Source: an uncultured Rickettsiales bacterium (GTDB lineage: Bacteria; Pseudomonadota; Alphaproteobacteria; Rickettsiales; SXRF01). From it: a stretch of DNA of 64,000 nucleotides. The DNA lies in assembly GCA_964575095.1 (NCBI GenBank), contig CAZNPA010000002.1, positions 101,204 to 165,203 on the forward strand, in the 5' to 3' direction. Both the position numbers and the translations under genes were made by a program. The notes beneath the pieces are model-generated. The model searched no databases. It saw only the letters and a list, made by a program, of their open reading frames with translations, and was not told the origin of the DNA. Below are positions 1,993-59,700 of the stretch, piece by piece. Positions within the stretch are counted from its first letter, which is position 1. The number at the start of each line of letters is the position of its first letter.

Positions 1993-2415
1993 ATGAAAAT
2001 CGTTGAACTGAAAACCCTGCCCGATCTGCGGCGCATCTATCCGCTGATTAAGCAGCTTAATCCGAAGCTATCCAAGGCGCAGTTTAACGCCCGGCTCAAG
2101 GAGATGCTGGCGGCGGATTATCGTTGCATAGCGGCGGTGGAAGGCGCTAAAATTCTTGGCGTCGCTGGTTTCTGGATCTTCACGCGTTTCTGGTGCGGCC
2201 GTTACATCGAGCCCGATAACGTGGTGGTGGACAAGAAACTCAGAAGCCGCGGCGTCGGCAAAAAACTGATGGTGTGGATCGAGGCCGAGGCCAAGCGGCA
2301 AAAATGCGATATACTGTATTTGACGGCGTACACTCACAATCACGCGTCGCACCGGTTTTATTTGCGCGAGCGATATATTGTTAGAGGTTTTGTTTTTACT
2401 AAGGAGCTACCATGA
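1993..2415 (+). CDS. GNAT family N-acetyltransferase
   Basis: GNAT motif A (VVDKKLRSRGVGKKLM) and motif B (N..SHRFY). ATG 1993; ATGA overlap with hppD. Confidence 0.85.
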   Translation: MKIVELKTLPDLRRIYPLIKQLNPKLSKAQFNARLKEMLAADYRCIAAVEGAKILGVAGFWIFTRFWCGRYIEPDNVVVDKKLRSRGVGKKLMVWIEAEAKRQKCDILYLTAYTHNHASHRFYLRERYIVRGFVFTKELP

Positions 2416-3509
2416 CCGCAACCGCCACTCACCACTCGTCACTCGTCACTAATCCCATGGGCACCGACGGCTTCGAGTTCGTCGAATATGCGGCGCTCGA
2501 CCCGAAACCGCTCGAGACATTATTCACGCAGTTGGGCTTTACCAGAATTGCCAAACATAAATCCAAAAACGTGCATCTGTGGCGTCAGGGCGAGGTCAAT
2601 TTCATCCTGAACGCCGAAAAGGACAGCCATGCCGAAGGATTTTACAACGCGCACGGCCCCAGCGCCAACGCCATGGCGTTTCGCGTCAAGGACACGGCGC
2701 AGGCGGTGCGCCACGCGCGGGCGCTCGGCGTTGAGGTCATCGAAAGCAAGATCGGCGCCGAGGAACTGCACATCCCCGCCATCCGCGGCGTCGGCGGCAG
2801 CCTGATTTTTCTCGTCGACCGCTACGGCGACAAAGGCTCGATTTACGACACCGATTTCCTGCCGCTGCCCGGCGTCGACCAGCATCCCAAGGGCGTCGGC
2901 CTCCGATATATCGACCACCTGACGCACAACGTGTTCCGCGGGCAGATGGATACGCTGGCCGGATTCTACGAGAAGATTTTCAACTTCCGCCAGATCCGTT
3001 ATTTCGACATCGAGGGCAAGCTCACGGGATTAGTCAGCCGCGCCATGACGTCGCCTTGCGGTAAAATCCGCATCCCGATCAACGAATCGTCCGACGACAA
3101 ATCGCAGATCGAGGAATTCCTGCGCGAGTACAAGGGCGAGGGCATCCAGCACATCGCGCTCTCGACCGAAGATATTTATAAAACCGTTGAAGGCCTTAAA
3201 AAAACCGGCATTCGGTTCATGGACCCGCCGCCGGAGACCTATTACGCGAATCTCCCTAAGCGCGTGCCGCACAGCAAGGAGGAAATCTCGCGCCTGAAAC
3301 CGCTGGGAATTCTAGTGGACGGCGCGCCGGAATCCAAACCCGGCGCCAACGACGGCGGCATTTTATTGCAAATCTTCACCAGTACCGTCATCGGCCCGAT
3401 CTTTTATGAGATCATCCAGCGCAAAGGTGACGAAGGCTTCGGCGAAGGAAACTTTAAGGCGCTGTTTGAGTCGATTGAGGAAGACCAGGTCAAGCGCGGG
3501 GTGCTCTAA
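2412..3509 (+). CDS. hppD: 4-hydroxyphenylpyruvate dioxygenase
   Basis: NPMGTDGFEFVE, IDHLTHNV, GEGIQHIAL, LLQIFT, FYEIIQRKG..GFGEGNFKALFESIE. Confidence 0.97.
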   Translation: MTATATHHSSLVTNPMGTDGFEFVEYAALDPKPLETLFTQLGFTRIAKHKSKNVHLWRQGEVNFILNAEKDSHAEGFYNAHGPSANAMAFRVKDTAQAVRHARALGVEVIESKIGAEELHIPAIRGVGGSLIFLVDRYGDKGSIYDTDFLPLPGVDQHPKGVGLRYIDHLTHNVFRGQMDTLAGFYEKIFNFRQIRYFDIEGKLTGLVSRAMTSPCGKIRIPINESSDDKSQIEEFLREYKGEGIQHIALSTEDIYKTVEGLKKTGIRFMDPPPETYYANLPKRVPHSKEEISRLKPLGILVDGAPESKPGANDGGILLQIFTSTVIGPIFYEIIQRKGDEGFGEGNFKALFESIEEDQVKRGVL

Positions 3510-3613
3510 CTGTCATCCCGAGCGTAGCGCAGCGGAGTCGAAGGATCTTCGCAAGTCGCAACGATAAAGATCCTTCGGCTTCGGTCTTACGGCCTCCGCT
3601 CAGGATGACAGTT
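3508..3613. repeat. REP-like palindromic element (family A, GTCATCCYGAGC...GAAGGATCT...AGATCCTTC...GCTCAGGATGAC)
   Basis: 17-bp terminal inverted repeats with 1 mismatch (aactgtcatcccgagcg / cgctcaggatgacagtt) plus inner IR cgaaggatct/agatccttcg. Overlaps the stop codons of both hppD and mrp. Confidence 0.9.
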
Positions 3614-4382
3614 GCGCCGCAATCTCCCTATACATTCCGGTACATTTTCCCTGATACATCTTCCCCCCATCCCCCGCCTCGCGTATCGCCGCATCCGCCG
3701 GTATCTCGCCTAAAAAGGGCGCGCTGAATTCGGCGGCGAAATTTTTTCCGCCGCCGCTGCCGAATAATTCCCCGCTCATGTTTTCAACGACGCCTAAAAT
3801 CGGCACATTCACCTTGATGAACATGGCGGCGCATTTGCGCGCGTCGTTTACCGCCACCGCTTGCGGCGTGGTGACGATGATGGCGCCGGTAAGTGGCACC
3901 AGCTGCGCCATGCTCAGATGAATGTCGCCGGTGCCGGGCGGCATGTCGACAATGAGATAATCCAGCGGCGCGTCCGCGGTTCCCCACTGCGTCAGCCGCA
4001 ATAGCTGCTGCAAGGTTTTGCTGATCATCGGCCCCCTGAATACCGCCGCCTGGTCAGTAATGAACCCCAGCGACATGCATTTGACGCCATAATTCTCCAG
4101 CGGGATCATCTGACCATTTTGGAAATCCGGCTTTCCTTTCAGGGAAAGCATGTGCGGAATGCTGGGCCCATAAATATCGGCATCGAGCAATCCGGCGCGT
4201 TTCCCCGATTGCGCCAGCGCCAGCGCGAGGTTCACCGCCGTCGTCGATTTGCCGACGCCGCCCTTGCCGGAGGCGACGGCGATGATTTTTCTGACATGCG
4301 GCAGCGGCTCGCGGTTCCATACCGCCGGTTTTCTTGCTGCTATCCCCGCACTTGTTGCGGGGTCTGGTTTGTTAGGCAACAT
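3600..4382 (-). CDS. mrp: Mrp/ApbC (NBP35 family) Fe-S cluster carrier ATPase, lacking the N-terminal DUF59-type domain
   Basis: IIAVASGKGGVGKST, LLDADIYGPS, DYLIVDMPPGTGD, VTTPQ, GVVENMS. Start uncertain (ATG 4382 chosen). Confidence 0.9.
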   Translation of the reverse strand: MLPNKPDPATSAGIAARKPAVWNREPLPHVRKIIAVASGKGGVGKSTTAVNLALALAQSGKRAGLLDADIYGPSIPHMLSLKGKPDFQNGQMIPLENYGVKCMSLGFITDQAAVFRGPMISKTLQQLLRLTQWGTADAPLDYLIVDMPPGTGDIHLSMAQLVPLTGAIIVTTPQAVAVNDARKCAAMFIKVNVPILGVVENMSGELFGSGGGKNFAAEFSAPFLGEIPADAAIREAGDGGKMYQGKCTGMYREIAAQLSS

Positions 4383-4479
4383 GGTTAGCAACTCATTGCT
4401 TGAAAATTTCTCTTGTGTATTCCTATATCTATAGCAGCATGTCTTAAAGATACCAGACCCCGCCATTCGGTGGGGATAG
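4340..4479. repeat. Pair of inverted family-C half elements (4341-4367 and 4452-4479)
   Basis: tatccccgcacttgttgcggggtctgg (4341-4367) is the exact reverse complement of 41241-41267. Right half accagaccccgccattcggtggggatag. Confidence 0.85.
4399..4428 (+). promoter_or_regulatory. RpoH (sigma32)-type promoter for hflKC
   Basis: CTTGAA-N17-CCTATAT, matching the alphaproteobacterial RpoH consensus, upstream of protease-quality-control genes. Confidence 0.65.
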
Positions 4480-4488
4480 GAGTAATAA

Positions 4489-5613
4489 ATGGCCTGGGGC
4501 GATAAAGGAGATTGGAACGACGGCGGCCCGTGGGGGAAGCCTTCTGGCGGGCGCGCGCCGGAGGAGCCGCCGTTTGGTGGCGGCGGTCCGACGCCGCAAG
4601 GCCCGGATTTCGACGCGTGGCTGAAAAAAGGCCAGGACACCTACCAGAAATTATTTGGTGGCGGCGAAGGCGGCAAGGGCATCGCGCTTTTGGTGGTGAT
4701 CGGCGCGCTGCTGTGGCTTAGCTCCGGCATTTATTTCGTTGGCGCCGATGAGCAGGGCGTGGTGCAGCGCTTCGGCGCCTATCACCGCACGGTCAGCTCC
4801 GGCCTTAATTACCACCTGCCTTATCCCATGGAGTCGGCGAAAACGCCGCGCGTTACCGTCGTCAATCGCGCTGAGATCGGCTTCCGCTCAGGCGGCTACG
4901 CGCGCAGCAAGGGCGCCGACGGCTCGGTGGCCGAAGAGAGCCTGATGCTGACTGGCGACGAGAACATCGTCGACGTCAATTTCGAGGTGCAGTGGAAAAT
5001 CATGAACGCGCCGAATTTCCTGTTCAACGTGCGCGATCCGGAGGATACGGTGAAAGCCGTGGCCGAAAGCGCCATGCGTGAGGTCGTCGGGCAAACCGAA
5101 ATCGCCACCATCCTCGCCGAAGGTAAACTTGCGGTCGAGCAGGATGCGAAAAAACTGATACAGGCGACGCTGGATAGTTACAAAGCCGGCATCGAAGTGG
5201 TGACGGTCAATCTGCTCAAGGCCGACCCGCCGGCGCAGGTGATCGACGCTTTCCGCGACGTGCAGACGGCGCGCGCCGACATGGAAACCGCGCGCAATCA
5301 GGCGGAAGCCTATAGGAACGATATCCTGCCGCGCGCCCGCGGTGATGCGCAGAAAATGGTCTTGGATGCTGAGGCGTACAAGCAGGAAGTGGTCGCCCGC
5401 GCGCAGGGCGAGGCGGCGCGGTTCTCGTCGGTCTATAACCAGTTCCGGCAGGCCAGGGACGTCACCAAGAAACGCATTTATCTGGAAACGATGGAAGAAA
5501 TTTTACAGGGCATGAACAAGATTATCGTCGAGGGCAAGAACACGCAGGGCGTGGTGCCGTACCTGCCGCTGCCGGAGATTAAAAATAAATCCGTCGAGGA
5601 GACCCCTAAATGA
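4489..5613 (+). CDS. hflK: FtsH protease modulator HflK
   Basis: N-terminal GPWG motif, SPFH domain (LMLTGDENIVDV, AESAMREVVG), VIDAFRDVQ; paired with hflC. Confidence 0.96.
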   Translation: MAWGDKGDWNDGGPWGKPSGGRAPEEPPFGGGGPTPQGPDFDAWLKKGQDTYQKLFGGGEGGKGIALLVVIGALLWLSSGIYFVGADEQGVVQRFGAYHRTVSSGLNYHLPYPMESAKTPRVTVVNRAEIGFRSGGYARSKGADGSVAEESLMLTGDENIVDVNFEVQWKIMNAPNFLFNVRDPEDTVKAVAESAMREVVGQTEIATILAEGKLAVEQDAKKLIQATLDSYKAGIEVVTVNLLKADPPAQVIDAFRDVQTARADMETARNQAEAYRNDILPRARGDAQKMVLDAEAYKQEVVARAQGEAARFSSVYNQFRQARDVTKKRIYLETMEEILQGMNKIIVEGKNTQGVVPYLPLPEIKNKSVEETPK

Positions 5614-16381: not shown

Positions 16382-16915
16382 ATGGCGCCGCTTTCCCAAC
16401 GGCTGGAATTGTTTTTTCTGGCGGCGCTTCCGGCGTTGCTGACTCTGGTGTTCATGCTTATTTATCTGGCGCCCAAGCATGTCGAGAGCATCCGCGCCAT
16501 CATGCCGCTCTTGCCGCTCTTGCCGGTATTTTACTGGGGTATGCTGCACACGCGCGCAATTCCCTATTGGTTCATGTTCTTAATCGGCCTGGTAATGGAC
16601 GCGGCCAGCGGCGCGCCGATGGGGCTGACCTCGCTTTTGTATATGCTCTTTCTTGCTCTGGTTACCATGCAGCGCAAAATGGTGCACAAGGAAGGCTTCA
16701 TGATTAAATGGAGCTATTTCAGCATATTATTGCTGGCGTTGCTGGTGCTGAATTGGCTGGGGCTCGCCTGGGCATACGCCAAAACGCCGCCGGTGCTTTC
16801 GGCTATGATGCAATGGGCGCTGACGGCGGCGTGTTACCCTCTGGCGCACTATGCCTTCGATTTCATCGAGCAATATATCCACGACCGCCGCTGGAAGATA
16901 CTGCACGGCAGGTAG
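16382..16915 (+). CDS. mreD: Rod shape-determining protein MreD
   Basis: Polytopic membrane protein (FYWG, FLIGLVMDA..GAPMG) between mreC and mrdA. Confidence 0.88.
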   Translation: MAPLSQRLELFFLAALPALLTLVFMLIYLAPKHVESIRAIMPLLPLLPVFYWGMLHTRAIPYWFMFLIGLVMDAASGAPMGLTSLLYMLFLALVTMQRKMVHKEGFMIKWSYFSILLLALLVLNWLGLAWAYAKTPPVLSAMMQWALTAACYPLAHYAFDFIEQYIHDRRWKILHGR

Positions 16916-16994
16916 GTTTCAGGTTTGAGGTTTCAGGTTTGAGCGGTTATAGCTATAGATTAGCTGAAACCTCAAACCTGAAACCTTAAACCTA
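16913..16994. repeat. Inverted heptamer array (AGGTTT[C/G])n ... ([C/G]AAACCT)n
   Basis: Four heptamers per arm; 23-bp perfect IR 16914-16936 / 16964-16986; fills the mreD-mrdA spacer. Confidence 0.9.
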
Positions 16995-19225: not shown

Positions 19226-19834
19226 ATGAACTTGTTGCCTTTAAAGCAGCTTTTGGCCAGACACGGCATCAGCCAGACCGATCTCGCGCATATTTTAGGG
19301 CGCGATAAGGCGGTGATTACCAACCTTTTTCAGGGAAAAAGGCGGCTTAAGGCCGATGAAGCCATGGTGATTGCGCGACGTATCGGCGTGCCGGTGGCGC
19401 AGATTCTGGGCATACAGGAGCAGCGCGGCGGCCTTAATGAACCGCCGCTCTTGATTCCGTTCCAGCATGAGCCGCAGTCGGGTAAGAAACTGGCCAACGT
19501 CGTCAAAAAAGAGGGGAAATTCTATCTTGAAATAGAGGAAAGCAAAGGCTATTCGCCCAAGGCCTATGCACTCGAAGCACGCGACGACAGCATGAACCTC
19601 TCCGGCATTTTACCCGGCGATATCGTGATTTCTGAGCTTGACCGCGCCTGCAAGCGCGGGCAAATCGTCGTCGCCCAGCATTACCAGGGCCGCGGCGCCA
19701 AAACCATCCTGCGCCTGTACGAGCCGCCGTTTCTAATGCCGCATTCGACCACGGCGTCGTTCAAGCCAATCCATCTCGATAAAGAAGAAGCGCGCGTCAT
19801 CTCGCCGGTCGTGAAATTGATACGGGGATATTAG
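19226..19834 (+). CDS. XRE-family HTH / S24 (CI/LexA-like) transcriptional regulator
   Basis: N-terminal HTH (GISQTDLAHILG.DKAVIT.L..GKRRL); C-terminal S24-like AYAL.ARDDSM...GILPGDIVI. AGGAGG RBS. Confidence 0.85.
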   Translation: MNLLPLKQLLARHGISQTDLAHILGRDKAVITNLFQGKRRLKADEAMVIARRIGVPVAQILGIQEQRGGLNEPPLLIPFQHEPQSGKKLANVVKKEGKFYLEIEESKGYSPKAYALEARDDSMNLSGILPGDIVISELDRACKRGQIVVAQHYQGRGAKTILRLYEPPFLMPHSTTASFKPIHLDKEEARVISPVVKLIRGY

Positions 19835-19854
19835 TAATTGGTCATTGAAAAGAG

Positions 19855-19925
19855 GGTAATTGGAAAAAAGGTAATTAGTAATTGGAAATAGCATTCCAAT
19901 TACCACCTTTCCAATTACTAATTAC
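19855..19925. repeat. Inverted GTAATT-based repeat array between convergent genes
   Basis: 18-bp perfect IR gtaattagtaattggaaa (19871-19888) / tttccaattactaattac (19908-19925), with extra ggtaattgg units. Confidence 0.85.
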
Positions 19926-50150: not shown

Positions 50151-50236
50151 CGTCATCCCCGCTTTATGCGGGGATCCAGAGCCAAATGAACCATTTTTCG
50201 TGTTGCCCTAGATCCCCGCACGAGGAGAGGATGACG
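50151..50236. repeat. Palindromic element (family B, GTCATCCCCGC...GCGGGGATC)
   Basis: 29-nt arms cgtcatccccgctttatgcggggatccag / ctagatccccgcacgaggagaggatgacg; the right arm encodes the SDR C-terminus. Confidence 0.85.
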
Positions 50237-51002
50237 TGATAGACGGCTTGGCGGGAAGCCGTGCGAACAGTGGGTCGGCAAACCATAGTGGCAGCCAGGA
50301 CATGAGTTGCAGCGGAACATATAATTGCCAGGGAAAAGCGATGCGCGATTTATTTTTGGCCAGGCCTGCCGCGATGATGCGCGCTGCTTTGCCCGCCTCC
50401 ATCATGAACGGCATGGGATATGGGTTGACGTCGGTCAGCGGCGTCTTGATGAAGCCGGGGCAGGCGACCGAGACTTCGATGCCGTAGGTTTTAAGCCAGC
50501 CGCGCAGACCTTCTCCCCACACACGCACGCAGGCTTTACTGGCGCTGTAGGCGGGCGAGGAGGGCAGGCCGCGAATCCCGGCCAGCGAGCTGATGATGGC
50601 GATTTGCCCGCGTTTACGTTCTATCATCTGCGGCAACAACGGTTGTACGGTATTGATGACGCCGCCGATGTTGGTCGAGAAAATATTTTGCACCTGCTCC
50701 GCCGATTCTCCGCCGCCGCCGATACCGGCAGAAATTCCCGCGTTGGCGATCACGAGGTCGATGGGCGTTTGTGCGTCGGCGGCCAGCAGCCACGCCGCCA
50801 CTGCATCGGCGTCGGTGACGTTTCCGGTTTGGATGAACACCTCGGCGCCAAGGCTGCGGCAATCCCGCGCTACCGCCGCCAGGCGCTCATGGTGGCGGCC
50901 ATGCAGGTGCAAAATTGCACCAGGCGCTGCATAATGACGCGCCAGCGCCGCACCAAGACCGCTGCTAGCGCCTGTAATTGCTATATTTTTAGGGCTTTTC
51001 AT
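50208..51002 (-). CDS. Short-chain dehydrogenase/reductase
   Basis: ITGASSGLG, NAG, SS..G..GLP...AYSASK, CPGFIKT. ATG 51002. Confidence 0.93.
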   Translation of the reverse strand: MKSPKNIAITGASSGLGAALARHYAAPGAILHLHGRHHERLAAVARDCRSLGAEVFIQTGNVTDADAVAAWLLAADAQTPIDLVIANAGISAGIGGGGESAEQVQNIFSTNIGGVINTVQPLLPQMIERKRGQIAIISSLAGIRGLPSSPAYSASKACVRVWGEGLRGWLKTYGIEVSVACPGFIKTPLTDVNPYPMPFMMEAGKAARIIAAGLAKNKSRIAFPWQLYVPLQLMSWLPLWFADPLFARLPAKPSITSSSPRAGI

Positions 51003-51074
51003 CAAAAAGTAACCATTGACAGGATATAATAGAACTGTAACCAGAAGCATAAAGAAATAGCACTTAGGAATCGA

Positions 51075-51620
51075 ATGACCACCCAAAAATCCGTCTGCGT
51101 CTTTTGTGGCGCATCCAACAACGTCCCCAAAAAATTCCTCACTATCGGCGCCGAGTTCGGGAAAATCCTGGCCCAGCGGGGCATTACGCTGGTCTATGGC
51201 GGCGGCGATTGCGGCGTCATGGGTGCCATCGCCAATTCCTCGCTTAAAGCCAAAGGCCACGTCACCGGCGTGTTTCCGGTCTCCTTACGCAACATCGAGA
51301 ACGAGCATCAGTCGCTCTCCGAGATCATCATCGTCAACACCATGCACGAGCGCAAGCAGTGCATGTTCGACCGCACCGACGCCTTCGTCGTCTTTCCCGG
51401 CGGATTCGGCACCATGGACGAGATGTTCGAGATCCTGACCTGGAAGCAACTGATGCTGCACAACAAGCCGATCATCATCTTCAATTATCAGGGCTACTGG
51501 GATCCGCTGATCGCCCTCATGAAAAACATCATCGAAACCGGCTTCGCCAAGCCCGAAACCGCGACCTATTACCACGTCGTGACCGAACTGGAGCAGATCC
51601 TGGACGTGCTGGAGTTTTAG
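51075..51620 (+). CDS. LOG family nucleotide monophosphate nucleosidase
   Basis: VCVFCGAS, LVYGGG..G.MG, MHERK, PGGFGTMDE, HNKPI..N..GYWD.L. Confidence 0.95.
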   Translation: MTTQKSVCVFCGASNNVPKKFLTIGAEFGKILAQRGITLVYGGGDCGVMGAIANSSLKAKGHVTGVFPVSLRNIENEHQSLSEIIIVNTMHERKQCMFDRTDAFVVFPGGFGTMDEMFEILTWKQLMLHNKPIIIFNYQGYWDPLIALMKNIIETGFAKPETATYYHVVTELEQILDVLEF

Positions 51621-57850: not shown

Positions 57851-58621
57851 CTATGGTTTCAATACAATCGCAGAAATCTGGCGGCCGTACGCGGTTTCAT
57901 TGCGCAGCGTCGCCCGCCGATAACTGAAGAAAAGATTTTCTTCCAAACACGTATCGTTCGCAAGCACATTTATGTGGCCGATGCCGCTTTGCAGCAACTG
58001 CGCCCTGGCATAGGCCTTAAGGTCGAACAGGTAATGCCCTTCGCGCGTCGAGGGGATGAAATAACCGTCGTTCTTTGCGTCGTCTTGCAGGAACCGGTCG
58101 CGGAATTCGCCGCTGACCTCATAGGAATATTGCTCAATGGCCGGACCGATGGAAGCAATGATATTCCCCGGCGTCGCGCCCAATTTTTTCATGGCCGCGA
58201 CACTGTTTTCGATAACGCCGCCGATGGTGCCTTTCCATCCGGCATGGACTGCGGCGATGACTTTCGCCTTGTCGTCGACAAGCAAAATCGGCACGCAATC
58301 GGCGGTCAGCACGCCGATGGCGATACCGGGGACATTCGTCACCAGCGCATCGCCTTTGGGTGCTTGCACGATCGTCCACGGTTTTTCGATGATTACGGCA
58401 TCCGCGCTGTGGGTTTGGTAGGCGTTGCATAGATTCTCGGCCTTCACGCCCAATGTCCGCGCCACGAAAAAGCGGTTCTTCTCGACGCGGGTGGCGATAT
58501 CGCCTGATCCGTAACCGCAATTCAAAAATGCGAACGCGCCTTCGCTGACGCCGCCCTCACGCGTGAAGAATCCGTGGTTGATGCCGGGAAGTTCCGAGAG
58601 CAGGGGACAAAGGACGCGCAT
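57851..58621 (-). CDS. pgeF: Peptidoglycan editing factor / purine nucleoside phosphorylase (YfiH/PgeF)
   Basis: HGFFTREGGVS, QTHS, GDALVT, LTADCVPILL, AAVHAGWKG, IGPAI, FFSYRR. Confidence 0.95.
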   Translation of the reverse strand: MRVLCPLLSELPGINHGFFTREGGVSEGAFAFLNCGYGSGDIATRVEKNRFFVARTLGVKAENLCNAYQTHSADAVIIEKPWTIVQAPKGDALVTNVPGIAIGVLTADCVPILLVDDKAKVIAAVHAGWKGTIGGVIENSVAAMKKLGATPGNIIASIGPAIEQYSYEVSGEFRDRFLQDDAKNDGYFIPSTREGHYLFDLKAYARAQLLQSGIGHINVLANDTCLEENLFFSYRRATLRNETAYGRQISAIVLKP

Positions 58622-59700
58622 CAGAAGCCCTCCGGCCTGGGATGGCCTTGACGCACGATGCATATGGCTTTGAATAAATCACCCATCTGCTCCATCGATA
58701 CCAGCCGTTCGACGCCGAGCGCAATCGAGATTTTTTGCGCGTCGCCTATGCCTTCGCATAATTTCGCCATGCGCGCCCTGACGCCCAGCACTGTCAAAAA
58801 TATTCCCTGCGGTACGGCGCCATAAGCCGCCGCGCCTGCGGTTGCCGCTGCCGCCTTGAGCATATCGAAATCGACGTGGCAGGTAAGGTCGGCCGTGCCC
58901 GGTTCGGCTAGCGGATCGTGATATTGGTGCGCACGCACGGCCTGTAGCGTATCCGTGCGCGAGCCGCCTTCGTAACCGTAATCGATGACCAGCGCCGCGC
59001 CGCCATGTGTTTTGATGTGTGCGCCGATGGAGGTGGCGATGGATTCGGCGGCTTCGCTATATTCTATTGTCATTCCCGCGAAAGCGGGAATCTTATCTAA
59101 CCGTTTGCGCAATTCTTGATTTAAGATTCCCGCTTTCGCAGGAATGACAAATATAAATTTATTATCTTCCATATTCACCATCCGCTCTTTCCACTCCCCA
59201 TCCCACACAAATTGCCGAACCGGCAGCGCGTCGAAAAATTCGTTGGTGACGAGCAGCAACGGTTTTTTCGGAATCTCGGAGAAATCGCGGTGCCATTCGA
59301 TGCGCGGGTGCTTGCCCGAAAGCGCCTGCCATTGTTTTTGTTGCAGTACCGGGCTAGTTTCGATGAGGTGAACGGAAACGGCGTCGTGGAACCCGGCGAT
59401 ATTCTTTGTTGCGCGCAGCATGTCGGCCATCAGTGTGCCTCGCCCCGGCCCCAGCTCCGCCAGCGCACATTCCGGTTTGCCCATCTTGTGCCATTCTTCG
59501 GAGAGCCAAGCGCCGATCAATTCACCGAACACCTGGCTGATCTCCGGCGCCGTGGTAAAATCGCCTTTGACGCCTAAAGGATCTTTACGCATGTAATAGC
59601 CGAATTCGGGATGCGACAGCGCCAGCTCCATATATTCGGCGACAGTGACCGCGCCTTTTTGAGAGATAAAGTCTACGAGGCCGTTCGTTTTGGGCGGCAT
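58621..59700 (-). CDS. NDUFAF7/MidA-like SAM-dependent methyltransferase with in-frame palindrome insertion
   Basis: YM..AL.HP..GYY, GDFTTAPEISQVFGELIG, ELGPGRGTLM, NEFFDALPV, IDYG, DLTCHVDF, MGDLFK. Confidence 0.93.
   Translation of the reverse strand: MPPKTNGLVDFISQKGAVTVAEYMELALSHPEFGYYMRKDPLGVKGDFTTAPEISQVFGELIGAWLSEEWHKMGKPECALAELGPGRGTLMADMLRATKNIAGFHDAVSVHLIETSPVLQQKQWQALSGKHPRIEWHRDFSEIPKKPLLLVTNEFFDALPVRQFVWDGEWKERMVNMEDNKFIFVIPAKAGILNQELRKRLDKIPAFAGMTIEYSEAAESIATSIGAHIKTHGGAALVIDYGYEGGSRTDTLQAVRAHQYHDPLAEPGTADLTCHVDFDMLKAAAATAGAAAYGAVPQGIFLTVLGVRARMAKLCEGIGDAQKISIALGVERLVSMEQMGDLFKAICIVRQGHPRPEGF
59067..59150. repeat. In-frame RPE/dRS3-like palindrome (family B), 84 bp
   Basis: 29-bp arms with one mismatch (ttgtcattcccgcgaaagcgggaatctta / taagattcccgctttcgcaggaatgacaa), 26-nt loop; encodes VIPAKAGI...IPAFAGMT. 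Confidence 0.95.

Follow-up and report, generated by a model that had tools for sequence, protein, structure and literature searches.

The window analysed here, 64,000 nucleotides (nt) of contig CAZNPA010000002.1 (assembly GCA_964575095.1) from an uncultured Rickettsiales bacterium of a bioreactor metagenome, contains on its minus strand a midA gene in whose coding frame an 84-bp palindromic repeat is situated. The gene stands in the order lgt - midA - pgeF/YfiH-like - ilvE-like, and this order was the same in all examined related contigs reaching past the gene, so that the comparisons made below concern true orthologues. The Pfam Methyltransf_28 profile matched the product over positions 1-248 of 249 (E = 3.1e-63), and phmmer retrieved the PDB entries 1zkd (1.3e-77) and 5ztz, the MidA of Dictyostelium (3e-63). 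The comparison of its AlphaFold2 (AF2) model with 5zu0 and 1zkd by Foldseek gave template modelling (TM) scores of 0.89-0.90, the value for 1zkd being 0.89 over 358 columns. The open reading frame (ORF) is uninterrupted and the family-invariant residues are all present in the protein of 359 amino acids (aa); the first-pass annotation, made from the sequence alone, was therefore right in describing an otherwise intact enzyme of the MidA/NDUFAF7 type. The function of bacterial MidA is unsettled; for the Wolbachia protein, methylation of DNA in E. coli has been reported (PMC12455994). The species of the window is not among the GTDB representatives, the best match there showing 57-60% identity, and no genome nearly identical to that of the window but with the site empty was found.

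The element consists of two arms of 29 nt, 97% complementary with one mismatch and separated by 26 nt (Table 1). Its symmetry centre falls between 59108 and 59109 (TTGC/GCAA), and at 82% complementarity the arms extend to 45 nt. Each arm is itself a hairpin, ATTCCCGC-GAAA-GCGGGAAT, placed after TGTC; the hairpin is perfect in one arm and includes one G:T pair in the right-hand arm, where the second TGTC tag is the complement of 59146-59149. The 23-mer core of the hairpin was matched twice in the window against 0.00 matches expected from shuffles, none of 100 shuffles yielding any, and the dRS3 pattern ATTCCC-N8-GGGAAT three times against 0.24 expected; within the element this pattern is exact at 59072-59091 and has one mismatch at 59126-59145. 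The predicted folding energy of the single-stranded element is -52.7 kcal/mol for RNA and -33.9 kcal/mol for DNA, z being -10.7 in each case. The palindrome with its arms, its reading frame and the dRS3-type core had all been noticed in the first-pass annotation, and its coordinates and anatomy were confirmed.

The element comprises 28 codons in frame with the ORF and encodes the peptide VIPAKAGILNQELRKRLDKIPAFAGMT. On the coding strand, arm 2 reads VIPAKAGIL immediately 3' of the Phe184 codon, the spacer encodes LNQELRKRLD with a helix predicted at residues 195-202, and arm 1 ends in ...KIPAFAGMT, the loop leading to strand 211-214. Tryptic peptides expected from the repeat-encoded segment, if it is translated, include AGILNQELR and IPAFAGMTIEYSEAAESIATSIGAHIK. 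The GC content around the element (59050-59250) is 0.40-0.44, compared with 0.55-0.65 over the remaining gene. Its two flanks, AAATTTATATT and ATAGAATATAG, are rich in A and T, and in the RNA fold they pair with one another in part. The possibility that the spacer is native sequence lying between two independent insertions of single repetitive extragenic palindromic (REP) sequences was considered and rejected, because the 84 bp are symmetric about their exact centre and the head-to-head dimer is the standard unit of the family to which the element belongs.

This family is that of the CGTC-tagged REPs defined by Di Nocera, De Gregorio and Rocco (2013, BMC Genomics 14:522, PMC3733652), which have the tag CGTC with the variants TGTC and CCTC, a stem of 8-9 bp whose first two positions are nearly always A-T, a 4-5-nt loop, and a short tail that is CCA in most cases. 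Such REPs form mainly head-to-head dimers and are commonest in Alphaproteobacteria; the group CGTC-1, with an 8-bp stem and a 4-nt loop, corresponds to dRS3 in Neisseria and to the Rickettsia palindromic element (RPE) RPE-6 in R. conorii (PMC3733652). In the window TGTC, an allowed variant of the tag, precedes both hairpins, the 8-bp stem starts with AT and closes the 4-nt loop GAAA, and the organisation is that of a head-to-head dimer with a multi-copy arm. Since the tail alone departs, being CTTA instead of the usual CCA(G), the element is a member of this known family. At the orthologous site in the related loci L001-L005 and L008 the tails are CCAG or CCAT, and CTTA-tailed CGTC-1 dimers occur in other metagenomes and in the source community. 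A metagenome scan for CTTA/TAAG-tailed dimers returned four unrelated dimers with other loops and shorter spacers and one terminator-like hairpin, none with the spacer of the window, and thus gave no support for a subfamily sharing that spacer.

The related Neisseria core ATTCCCGCGCAGGCGGGAATC is the master 21-mer of a population of REP doublets forming hairpins (REPINs) tied to a Group 2 REP-associated tyrosine transposase (RAYT), and REPINs in general have conserved arms and variable spacers and are almost exclusively extragenic (Bertels and Rainey 2011; for the REPIN-RAYT system of Neisseria, bioRxiv 10.1101/2021.07.10.451892). The core in the window differs from this master in the loop only, and the arrangement is that of a REPIN, an inverted REP pair less than 130 bp apart with multi-copy arms and a unique spacer. 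The element is thus a CGTC-1 REP head-to-head dimer of REPIN type, from the superfamily of dRS3 and RPE-6. It is of the same superfamily as dRS3 and not of the Neisseria arrangement: no Neisseria-style intergenic mosaic array with RS repeats was found in the window, the dimer being single, isolated and within a gene.

Intragenic CGTC-1 dimers coding for 20-30 aa, such as VIPAKAGISLPFDEQSGERSGKKREIPAFAGMT, are documented (PMC3733652), and the peptides reported from R. conorii and S. wittichii include VIPAKAGI and IPAFAGMT and, from other frames, SFPRKRES, CHSRESGNP and DSRFRGND (PMC3733652, Additional file 3). The first-pass annotation had proposed an RPE-like coding insertion by a different repeat family. 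The RPE-like behaviour is upheld in that a palindromic repeat keeps the frame open within a MidA-type gene that is complete in all other respects. The family cannot be called different from the RPEs, since dRS3 and the RPE-6 of R. conorii both belong to CGTC-1 (PMC3733652), nor does the idea of a new RPE-like family survive, because the element is of a documented REP/REPIN type. The element is a textbook-type REP/REPIN, and in-frame copies of REPs and RPEs are already known; what the analysis adds is the repeated occupation of one beta-hairpin tip in MidA by such sequences.

Table 1. Positions in the window of the host gene, of the element with its parts, and of further palindromic structures.
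Feature	Position	Strand	Description
Host gene	58621..59700	-	359-aa MidA/NDUFAF7-type SAM (S-adenosylmethionine)-dependent methyltransferase, Pfam PF02636
Whole element	59067..59150	-	Head-to-head dimer of two CGTC-1 REP hairpins, REPIN-type; residues 185-211 (VIPAKAGILNQELRKRLDKIPAFAGMT)
Arm 1	59067..59095	.	TGTC tag 59068-59071, hairpin ATTCCCGC-GAAA-GCGGGAAT 59072-59091, CTTA tail
Spacer	59096..59121	.	Central perfect palindrome TTGCGCAA (59105-59112)
Arm 2	59122..59150	.	Arm 1 in inverted orientation with a single mismatch; hairpin ATTCCCGC-TTTC-GCAGGAAT at 59126-59145
Decayed CGTC-tagged head-to-head dimer	50151..50236	.	CGTCATCCCCGC-TTTAT-GCGGGGATCCAG ... CTAGATCCCCGC..GGATGACG; 75% complementary
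Third palindromic doublet	3510..3611	.	TGTCAT...ATGACA termini (GTCATCCCGAGCG... type); arms 20 nt, 90%
Palindromic/tandem structures	16914-16993, 19834-19925		AGGTTTCAGGTTTGAGGTTTCAG / CTGAAACCTCAAACCTGAAACCT (23-nt arms, 100%); cluster of GTAATTGG / CCAATTAC units

The comparison set consists of 120 orthologues of 50-70% identity. Among them, no fewer than 17 and as many as 28 have repeat-derived sequence at this tip, and these cases are scattered over the tree. Loop peptides derived from CGTC-1 are present in 13 of the 120 and use two reading frames (IPAKAGI...PAFAG(M/V)T and HPCESRD...DSRFRGND), which are mixed in some cases (MPAEADIQKKLDSGFRRNDG, for instance). Four further orthologues have another CGTC-tagged type (VIAS...PRND), six a GC-rich hairpin type, here named 'GEG' (...LPSPSRGEG...), and five IPAxAG motifs, possibly remnants. 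In locus L095 the 'GEG' peptide corresponds to an 11-bp GC-rich hairpin, no second copy of which was found in that 21-kb locus; given its recurrence in six unrelated orthologues, the 'GEG' type may be a dispersed repeat.

At the DNA level ten orthologue loci were inspected (L001-L008, L088 and L089). Seven of the first eight (L001-L005, L007 and L008) have palindromes bounded by GTCAT...ATGAC at the site, and L006 has a single hairpin, GTCCTTCCCGC-TAAA-GCGGGCATGAC, with the peptide VLPAKAGMT. L088 retains only a decayed remnant, and the loop DNA of L089 contains no recognisable hairpin, its peptide alone resembling that of the window. The left junction lies 32 nt after the ER codons, at the same nucleotide (TT/YGTC), in the window, L003, L007, L008 and L088, where the tag overlaps the third base of the conserved Phe codon. 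The distance from ER to the start of the tag is 35-36 nt in L002, L004 and L006; in L001 and L005, which lack the upstream strand, it is 11 or 8 nt. The right end is situated 4 nt before the E213 codon in the window, L001, L005 and L006, and 12 nt before it in L002, L003, L004, L007 and L008.

The loci L003 and L007 (81% identity in the gene, 89% in lgt) are alike up to GTCAT and again from ATGAC/GG, with different sequence types between these points, a replacement that looks like a cassette exchange. The arms of the L007 element have no strong individual hairpins (z about 0, the whole element z = -3), and because of this weak folding it was assigned to the second CGTC-tagged sequence type and to no numbered family. 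In a neighbour-joining tree from which the loop columns were left out, genes with a repeat are intermingled with genes whose site is empty, and the members of sister pairs are in different states. The stems at the site covary: 99% of the cells are paired, 14 double changes were counted, both partners vary at three of the eight positions of the stem, and none of 500 shuffles reached the score. Further CGTC-1 hairpins and dimers were seen in L003 (3735-3758, 11907-11930), L007 (8516-8606, 11918-11941, 18957-18980) and L002 (5435-5458), within the same syntenic neighbourhood, for example directly 3' of pgeF in L003 and L007; in L007 the 5' end of a Methyltransf_3 ORF also has one, and both arm variants of the L003 midA dimer are present elsewhere in the L003 locus.

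In the AF2 model (predicted local distance difference test, pLDDT, 91; predicted TM score 0.90) the insert has a pLDDT of about 90 and is arranged as strand 181-185, loop, the spacer-encoded helix 195-202, loop, and strand 211-214. In the short orthologue P0028 the corresponding strands (177-180 and 186-189) are modelled with five residues between them; the element is thus situated at the tip of a beta-hairpin and replaces the native turn rather than being added to it. The connection ER173...E213 measures 18-55 aa across the 120 orthologues, and 28 of them have a short turn of 18-25 aa. Many others have a segment as long as that of the window, and PDB 1zkd aligns across it gap-free. Removal of the element would leave 11 aa between ER173 and E213, against the minimum of 18 in the orthologues, and would also delete the Gly that the GMT of the element provides at the majority-consensus position -4 from the invariant E213 (G-x-I-x-E). 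The earlier statement that the element adds 28 aa, to be seen as a gap of about 28 aa in the orthologues, is contradicted by these results, the alignment having returned the equal-length segments that its author had named as evidence against it. The proposed surface loop was borne out in the model as far as a beta-hairpin tip, a structurally permissive place, is concerned, its exposure at the surface being presumed.

Some of the short loops also recall the repeat. In L011 (metagenome-assembled genome Alphaproteobacteria bacterium C4_MAG_00079) the short midA loop reads TTC ACT CCC GCG GGC GAC GTG (FTPAGDV) and resembles what a CGTC-1 hairpin reduced to its stem would leave (ATTCCCGC[GAAAGC]GGGAATGAC), and many 'empty' orthologues read F-x-P-A/S-x-G at the site. 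It is tempting to speculate that the short forms are old hairpin remnants or that a native CCCGCGGG motif attracts REP sequence.

Public metagenome runs, labelled X1, X2 and X3, were consulted for the reality and the copy number of the element. Contigs from X1 and X2 cover 59069-59700 and 58621-59096 with 0 differences to the window, and because two independent runs reproduce it in this way the element is not an assembly artefact. A chimera formed at the hairpin, or a native sequence self-complementary by accident, would agree with the fact that short-read assemblers break here, the Logan contigs starting or ending within the arm; but this explanation is effectively refuted already, not only by the full element in both runs but also by its two halves, which connect the N-terminal portion of one conserved gene in frame to its C-terminal portion, by the shuffles, none of which gave a single match to the core, and by the identity of the sequence to a cross-phylum repeat consensus. 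Contigs of X1 and X3 with joints 59004->59219 and 59004->59588 were also observed; they have a low depth (2.6-2.9x) and several mismatches, align to conserved gene parts only and skip the loop region, and they most likely represent the midA of a related organism with a different loop in the same bioreactor and not a deletion variant.

In run X1 the arm stretch 59067-59098 (32 nt, comprising tag, hairpin and CTTATC tail) sums to a depth of about 147x against about 8x for the gene, i.e. about 18-fold, and in X2 to 50x against 6x. The arm occurs in at least eight distinct contigs of X1, and other contigs of genome-like depth (8.06, 7.05, 6.8 and 5) match it with 0-1 mismatch but part from the window immediately beyond 59098. 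The arms form a homogeneous multi-copy family and the spacer is locus-specific. In L088, whose protein shows 62% aa identity outside the loop, a segment of the same length, position and frame is found. Its gap-free comparison with the window gave 42 identities in 84 nt, equalled by 1 of 34,410 background windows, with 17/27 in the left arm (1.5e-4) and 16/30 in the spacer (9e-4). The peptide LRKRLDKIP of the window and LRERLYKIP of L088 are related via synonymous differences, 7 of 12 spacer residues being identical and 3 of those 7 having identical codons. The comparison suggests that L088 and the window likely share the ancestry of their insertion. The qualification of the element as 'fresh' and 'very recent', which had been derived from the identity of its arms, is consequently doubtful: arm identity is not a clock where the arms are homogeneous across copies and a decayed counterpart exists in L088 in the same register.

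Given the observed identity, anatomy and in-frame position of the element, its recurrence at the DNA level, the covariation of the stems and the multi-copy arms around a locus-specific spacer, the most economical reading is a long occupation with arms kept like those of the REP population of the genome. We consider it probable, with a fair share of doubt, that a REP dimer has long been resident in frame at the beta-hairpin tip of MidA, a site that is repeatedly occupied. The element would be read through as protein, as with the Rickettsia RPEs: one hairpin would encode the exit from strand 181-185 (VIPAKAGI), the spacer a short helix (LNQELRKRLDK), and the other hairpin the loop and first residues of strand 211-214 (IPAFAGMT), its Gly standing in for the consensus Gly, so that the native turn would be substituted and not simply lengthened. 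For the enzyme the element is most probably a tolerated passenger, as the loop length of 18-55 aa and the intact family-invariant residues suggest. In this uncultured alphaproteobacterial lineage the site would have been occupied by REPs long and repeatedly, the dimers, single hairpin or remnants of the orthologues lying directly after the same conserved Phe codon. The arms would look young because they are kept uniform across the REP population of the genome, possibly by transposase copying, gene conversion or selection on the hairpin.

Several observations weigh against this reading. The junctions are not identical in all loci (32, 35, 36, 11 and 8 nt after ER), so that several insertions may have occurred independently. 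Simple neighbour joining was used for the tree, and the covariation alignment took in only arms still recognisable as hairpins, which biases it towards pairing. The other arm copies were placed in the same genome by similar coverage only. The right arm of L088 is at background, and the homology of its spacer is moderate and significant in the fixed register only; in a free local alignment of the 30-nt spacer with the loops of nine orthologues it was not significant (L088 p = 0.27; L004 and L007, p = 0.05 each), for which reason the shared ancestry with L088 is not proven. The RNA runs searched for the midA gene do not contain it. A scan for the HUH motif of RAYTs found none in the window and 11 related loci, which is a weak negative, and no dedicated or linked transposase of CGTC REPs was found by Di Nocera et al. 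(PMC3733652). Surface exposure of the segment is suggested by the modelled secondary structure and the length variability only.

The main rival supposes that the repeat was re-inserted or replaced recently, the site being a preferred one. What had been proposed at first, a simple and very recent insertion by which a mobile palindrome added 28 residues to an empty loop, now seems rather unlikely. The 97% complementary arms, identical to the family consensus, would agree with it, as would the near-identical arms in other community contigs at genome-like coverage, which suggest a homogeneous and possibly active family, and the existence of short orthologues without the segment. However, excision of the element leaves a connection shorter than in any of the 120 orthologues and without its consensus Gly, and the nearest relatives (P0003/L004 and P0005/L088) have at the site a dimer or a decayed copy of the same length. 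Moreover, the spacer is not common to the other arm copies, unlike what a fresh copy of a master would show, though REPIN spacers are variable in general.

Exaptation may also be envisaged, either of the spacer helix as a substrate- or partner-binding decoration replacing the loop-helix-loop of 1zkd, or of the RNA hairpin as a signal for mRNA stability or processing in an lgt-midA-pgeF operon. The segment is modelled as a helix with a pLDDT of about 90 and has the size and place of the native segment in 1zkd, its central peptide is kept through synonymous changes in L088, the stems at the site covary, and REPs are mostly transcribed and located downstream of ORFs (Di Nocera et al. 2013, PMC3733652). 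Against this, the loop is dispensable in the 28 short orthologues and its content is very diverse, the AF2 confidence may derive from the alignment, and the covariation is equally explained by replacement from the own REP pool, as the arm variants found elsewhere in the L003 locus illustrate; with the gene missing from the RNA runs as well, exaptation is regarded as improbable. As an extension of the long and repeated occupation preferred here, the MidA tip could be a site-specific REP cassette locus, at which types sharing the CGTC tag and CCAG/CTGG inner tails swap precisely between GTCAT and ATGAC, directly after the conserved Phe codon; this is proposed tentatively, as a conjecture with the odds against it. 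If true, it would imply a tag-guided mechanism of integration or conversion acting inside coding DNA. The repeat-encoded loop-helix-loop would then form, again and again, a structural decoration that is optional for the enzyme, and selfish repeats would have been a source of protein modules at a single fixed place throughout long periods of evolution.

The window contains two further elements of the superfamily, and all three touch coding sequence. The decayed dimer shows that the superfamily is present elsewhere in the genome; an ORF resembling short-chain dehydrogenases/reductases, 50208..51260(-), ends with ...TSSSPRAGI* within one of its arms, the stop codon being provided by the ATCTAG tail. 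The third doublet lies between the convergent HppD-like ORF 2412..3509(+) and Mrp/ApbC-like ORF 3600..4640(-), and the last codons and stop of the latter (..QLSS*) are read from the doublet terminus CTGTCATCCTGA. The remaining palindromic and tandem structures of Table 1 are unrelated to the CGTC family.

What is worth keeping from the analysis is that one codon-level position in a conserved housekeeping enzyme is REP-occupied in roughly a fifth of the orthologues of the clade. This occupation involves two reading frames, two sequence types confirmed at the DNA level, covarying stems and close relatives differing only inside the repeat. CGTC REPs are without an established mobilising enzyme, and a site that is fixed, alignable, anchored in a protein and found in many independent states offers a rare natural experiment on them, which bears on targeted insertion versus gene conversion, on the time of persistence, and on how repeat peptides become parts of proteins. 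It also carries the caution that arm identity within a REP dimer should not be read as a clock for the age of the insertion.

With regard to known systems, the element shares with the CGTC-1 REPs the tag, the 8-bp stem starting with AT, the 4-nt loop, the head-to-head homodimer, the predominantly alphaproteobacterial distribution and the encoded peptides VIPAKAGI and IPAFAGMT. It differs from them in its inner tail, CTTA/TAAG and not the usual CCA(G), in its host, as MidA/DUF185 is absent from the list of REP-decorated genes of Di Nocera et al., and in that one gene site is filled in many lineages by more than one sequence type. The only precedent that was found for a recurrent REP occupation of one gene site is a remark according to which the recB genes of X. 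campestris and X. oryzae have different REPs at approximately one position. As in REPINs, two inverted REPs less than 130 bp apart have conserved arms and a variable spacer, whereas REPINs are almost exclusively extragenic and the present element lies in a coding frame. The protein resembles the MidA/NDUFAF7 arginine methyltransferase (PDB 5zu0/5ztz and 1zkd; PMC3829151) in its full-length PF02636 match, a TM score of about 0.9 and the invariant residues kept, and differs in that the inter-strand connection after the NEFFDALP motif is repeat-encoded. The Rickettsia RPEs (Ogata et al. 2000/2002, as cited in PMC3733652) are likewise palindromic repeats inserted in frame in conserved housekeeping proteins with the fold undisturbed; in contrast to them, the present host is a free-living bioreactor alphaproteobacterium of about 55% GC and not Rickettsia, and the element replaces a native turn, supplies a consensus residue and occupies a site whose occupation recurs across the clade.

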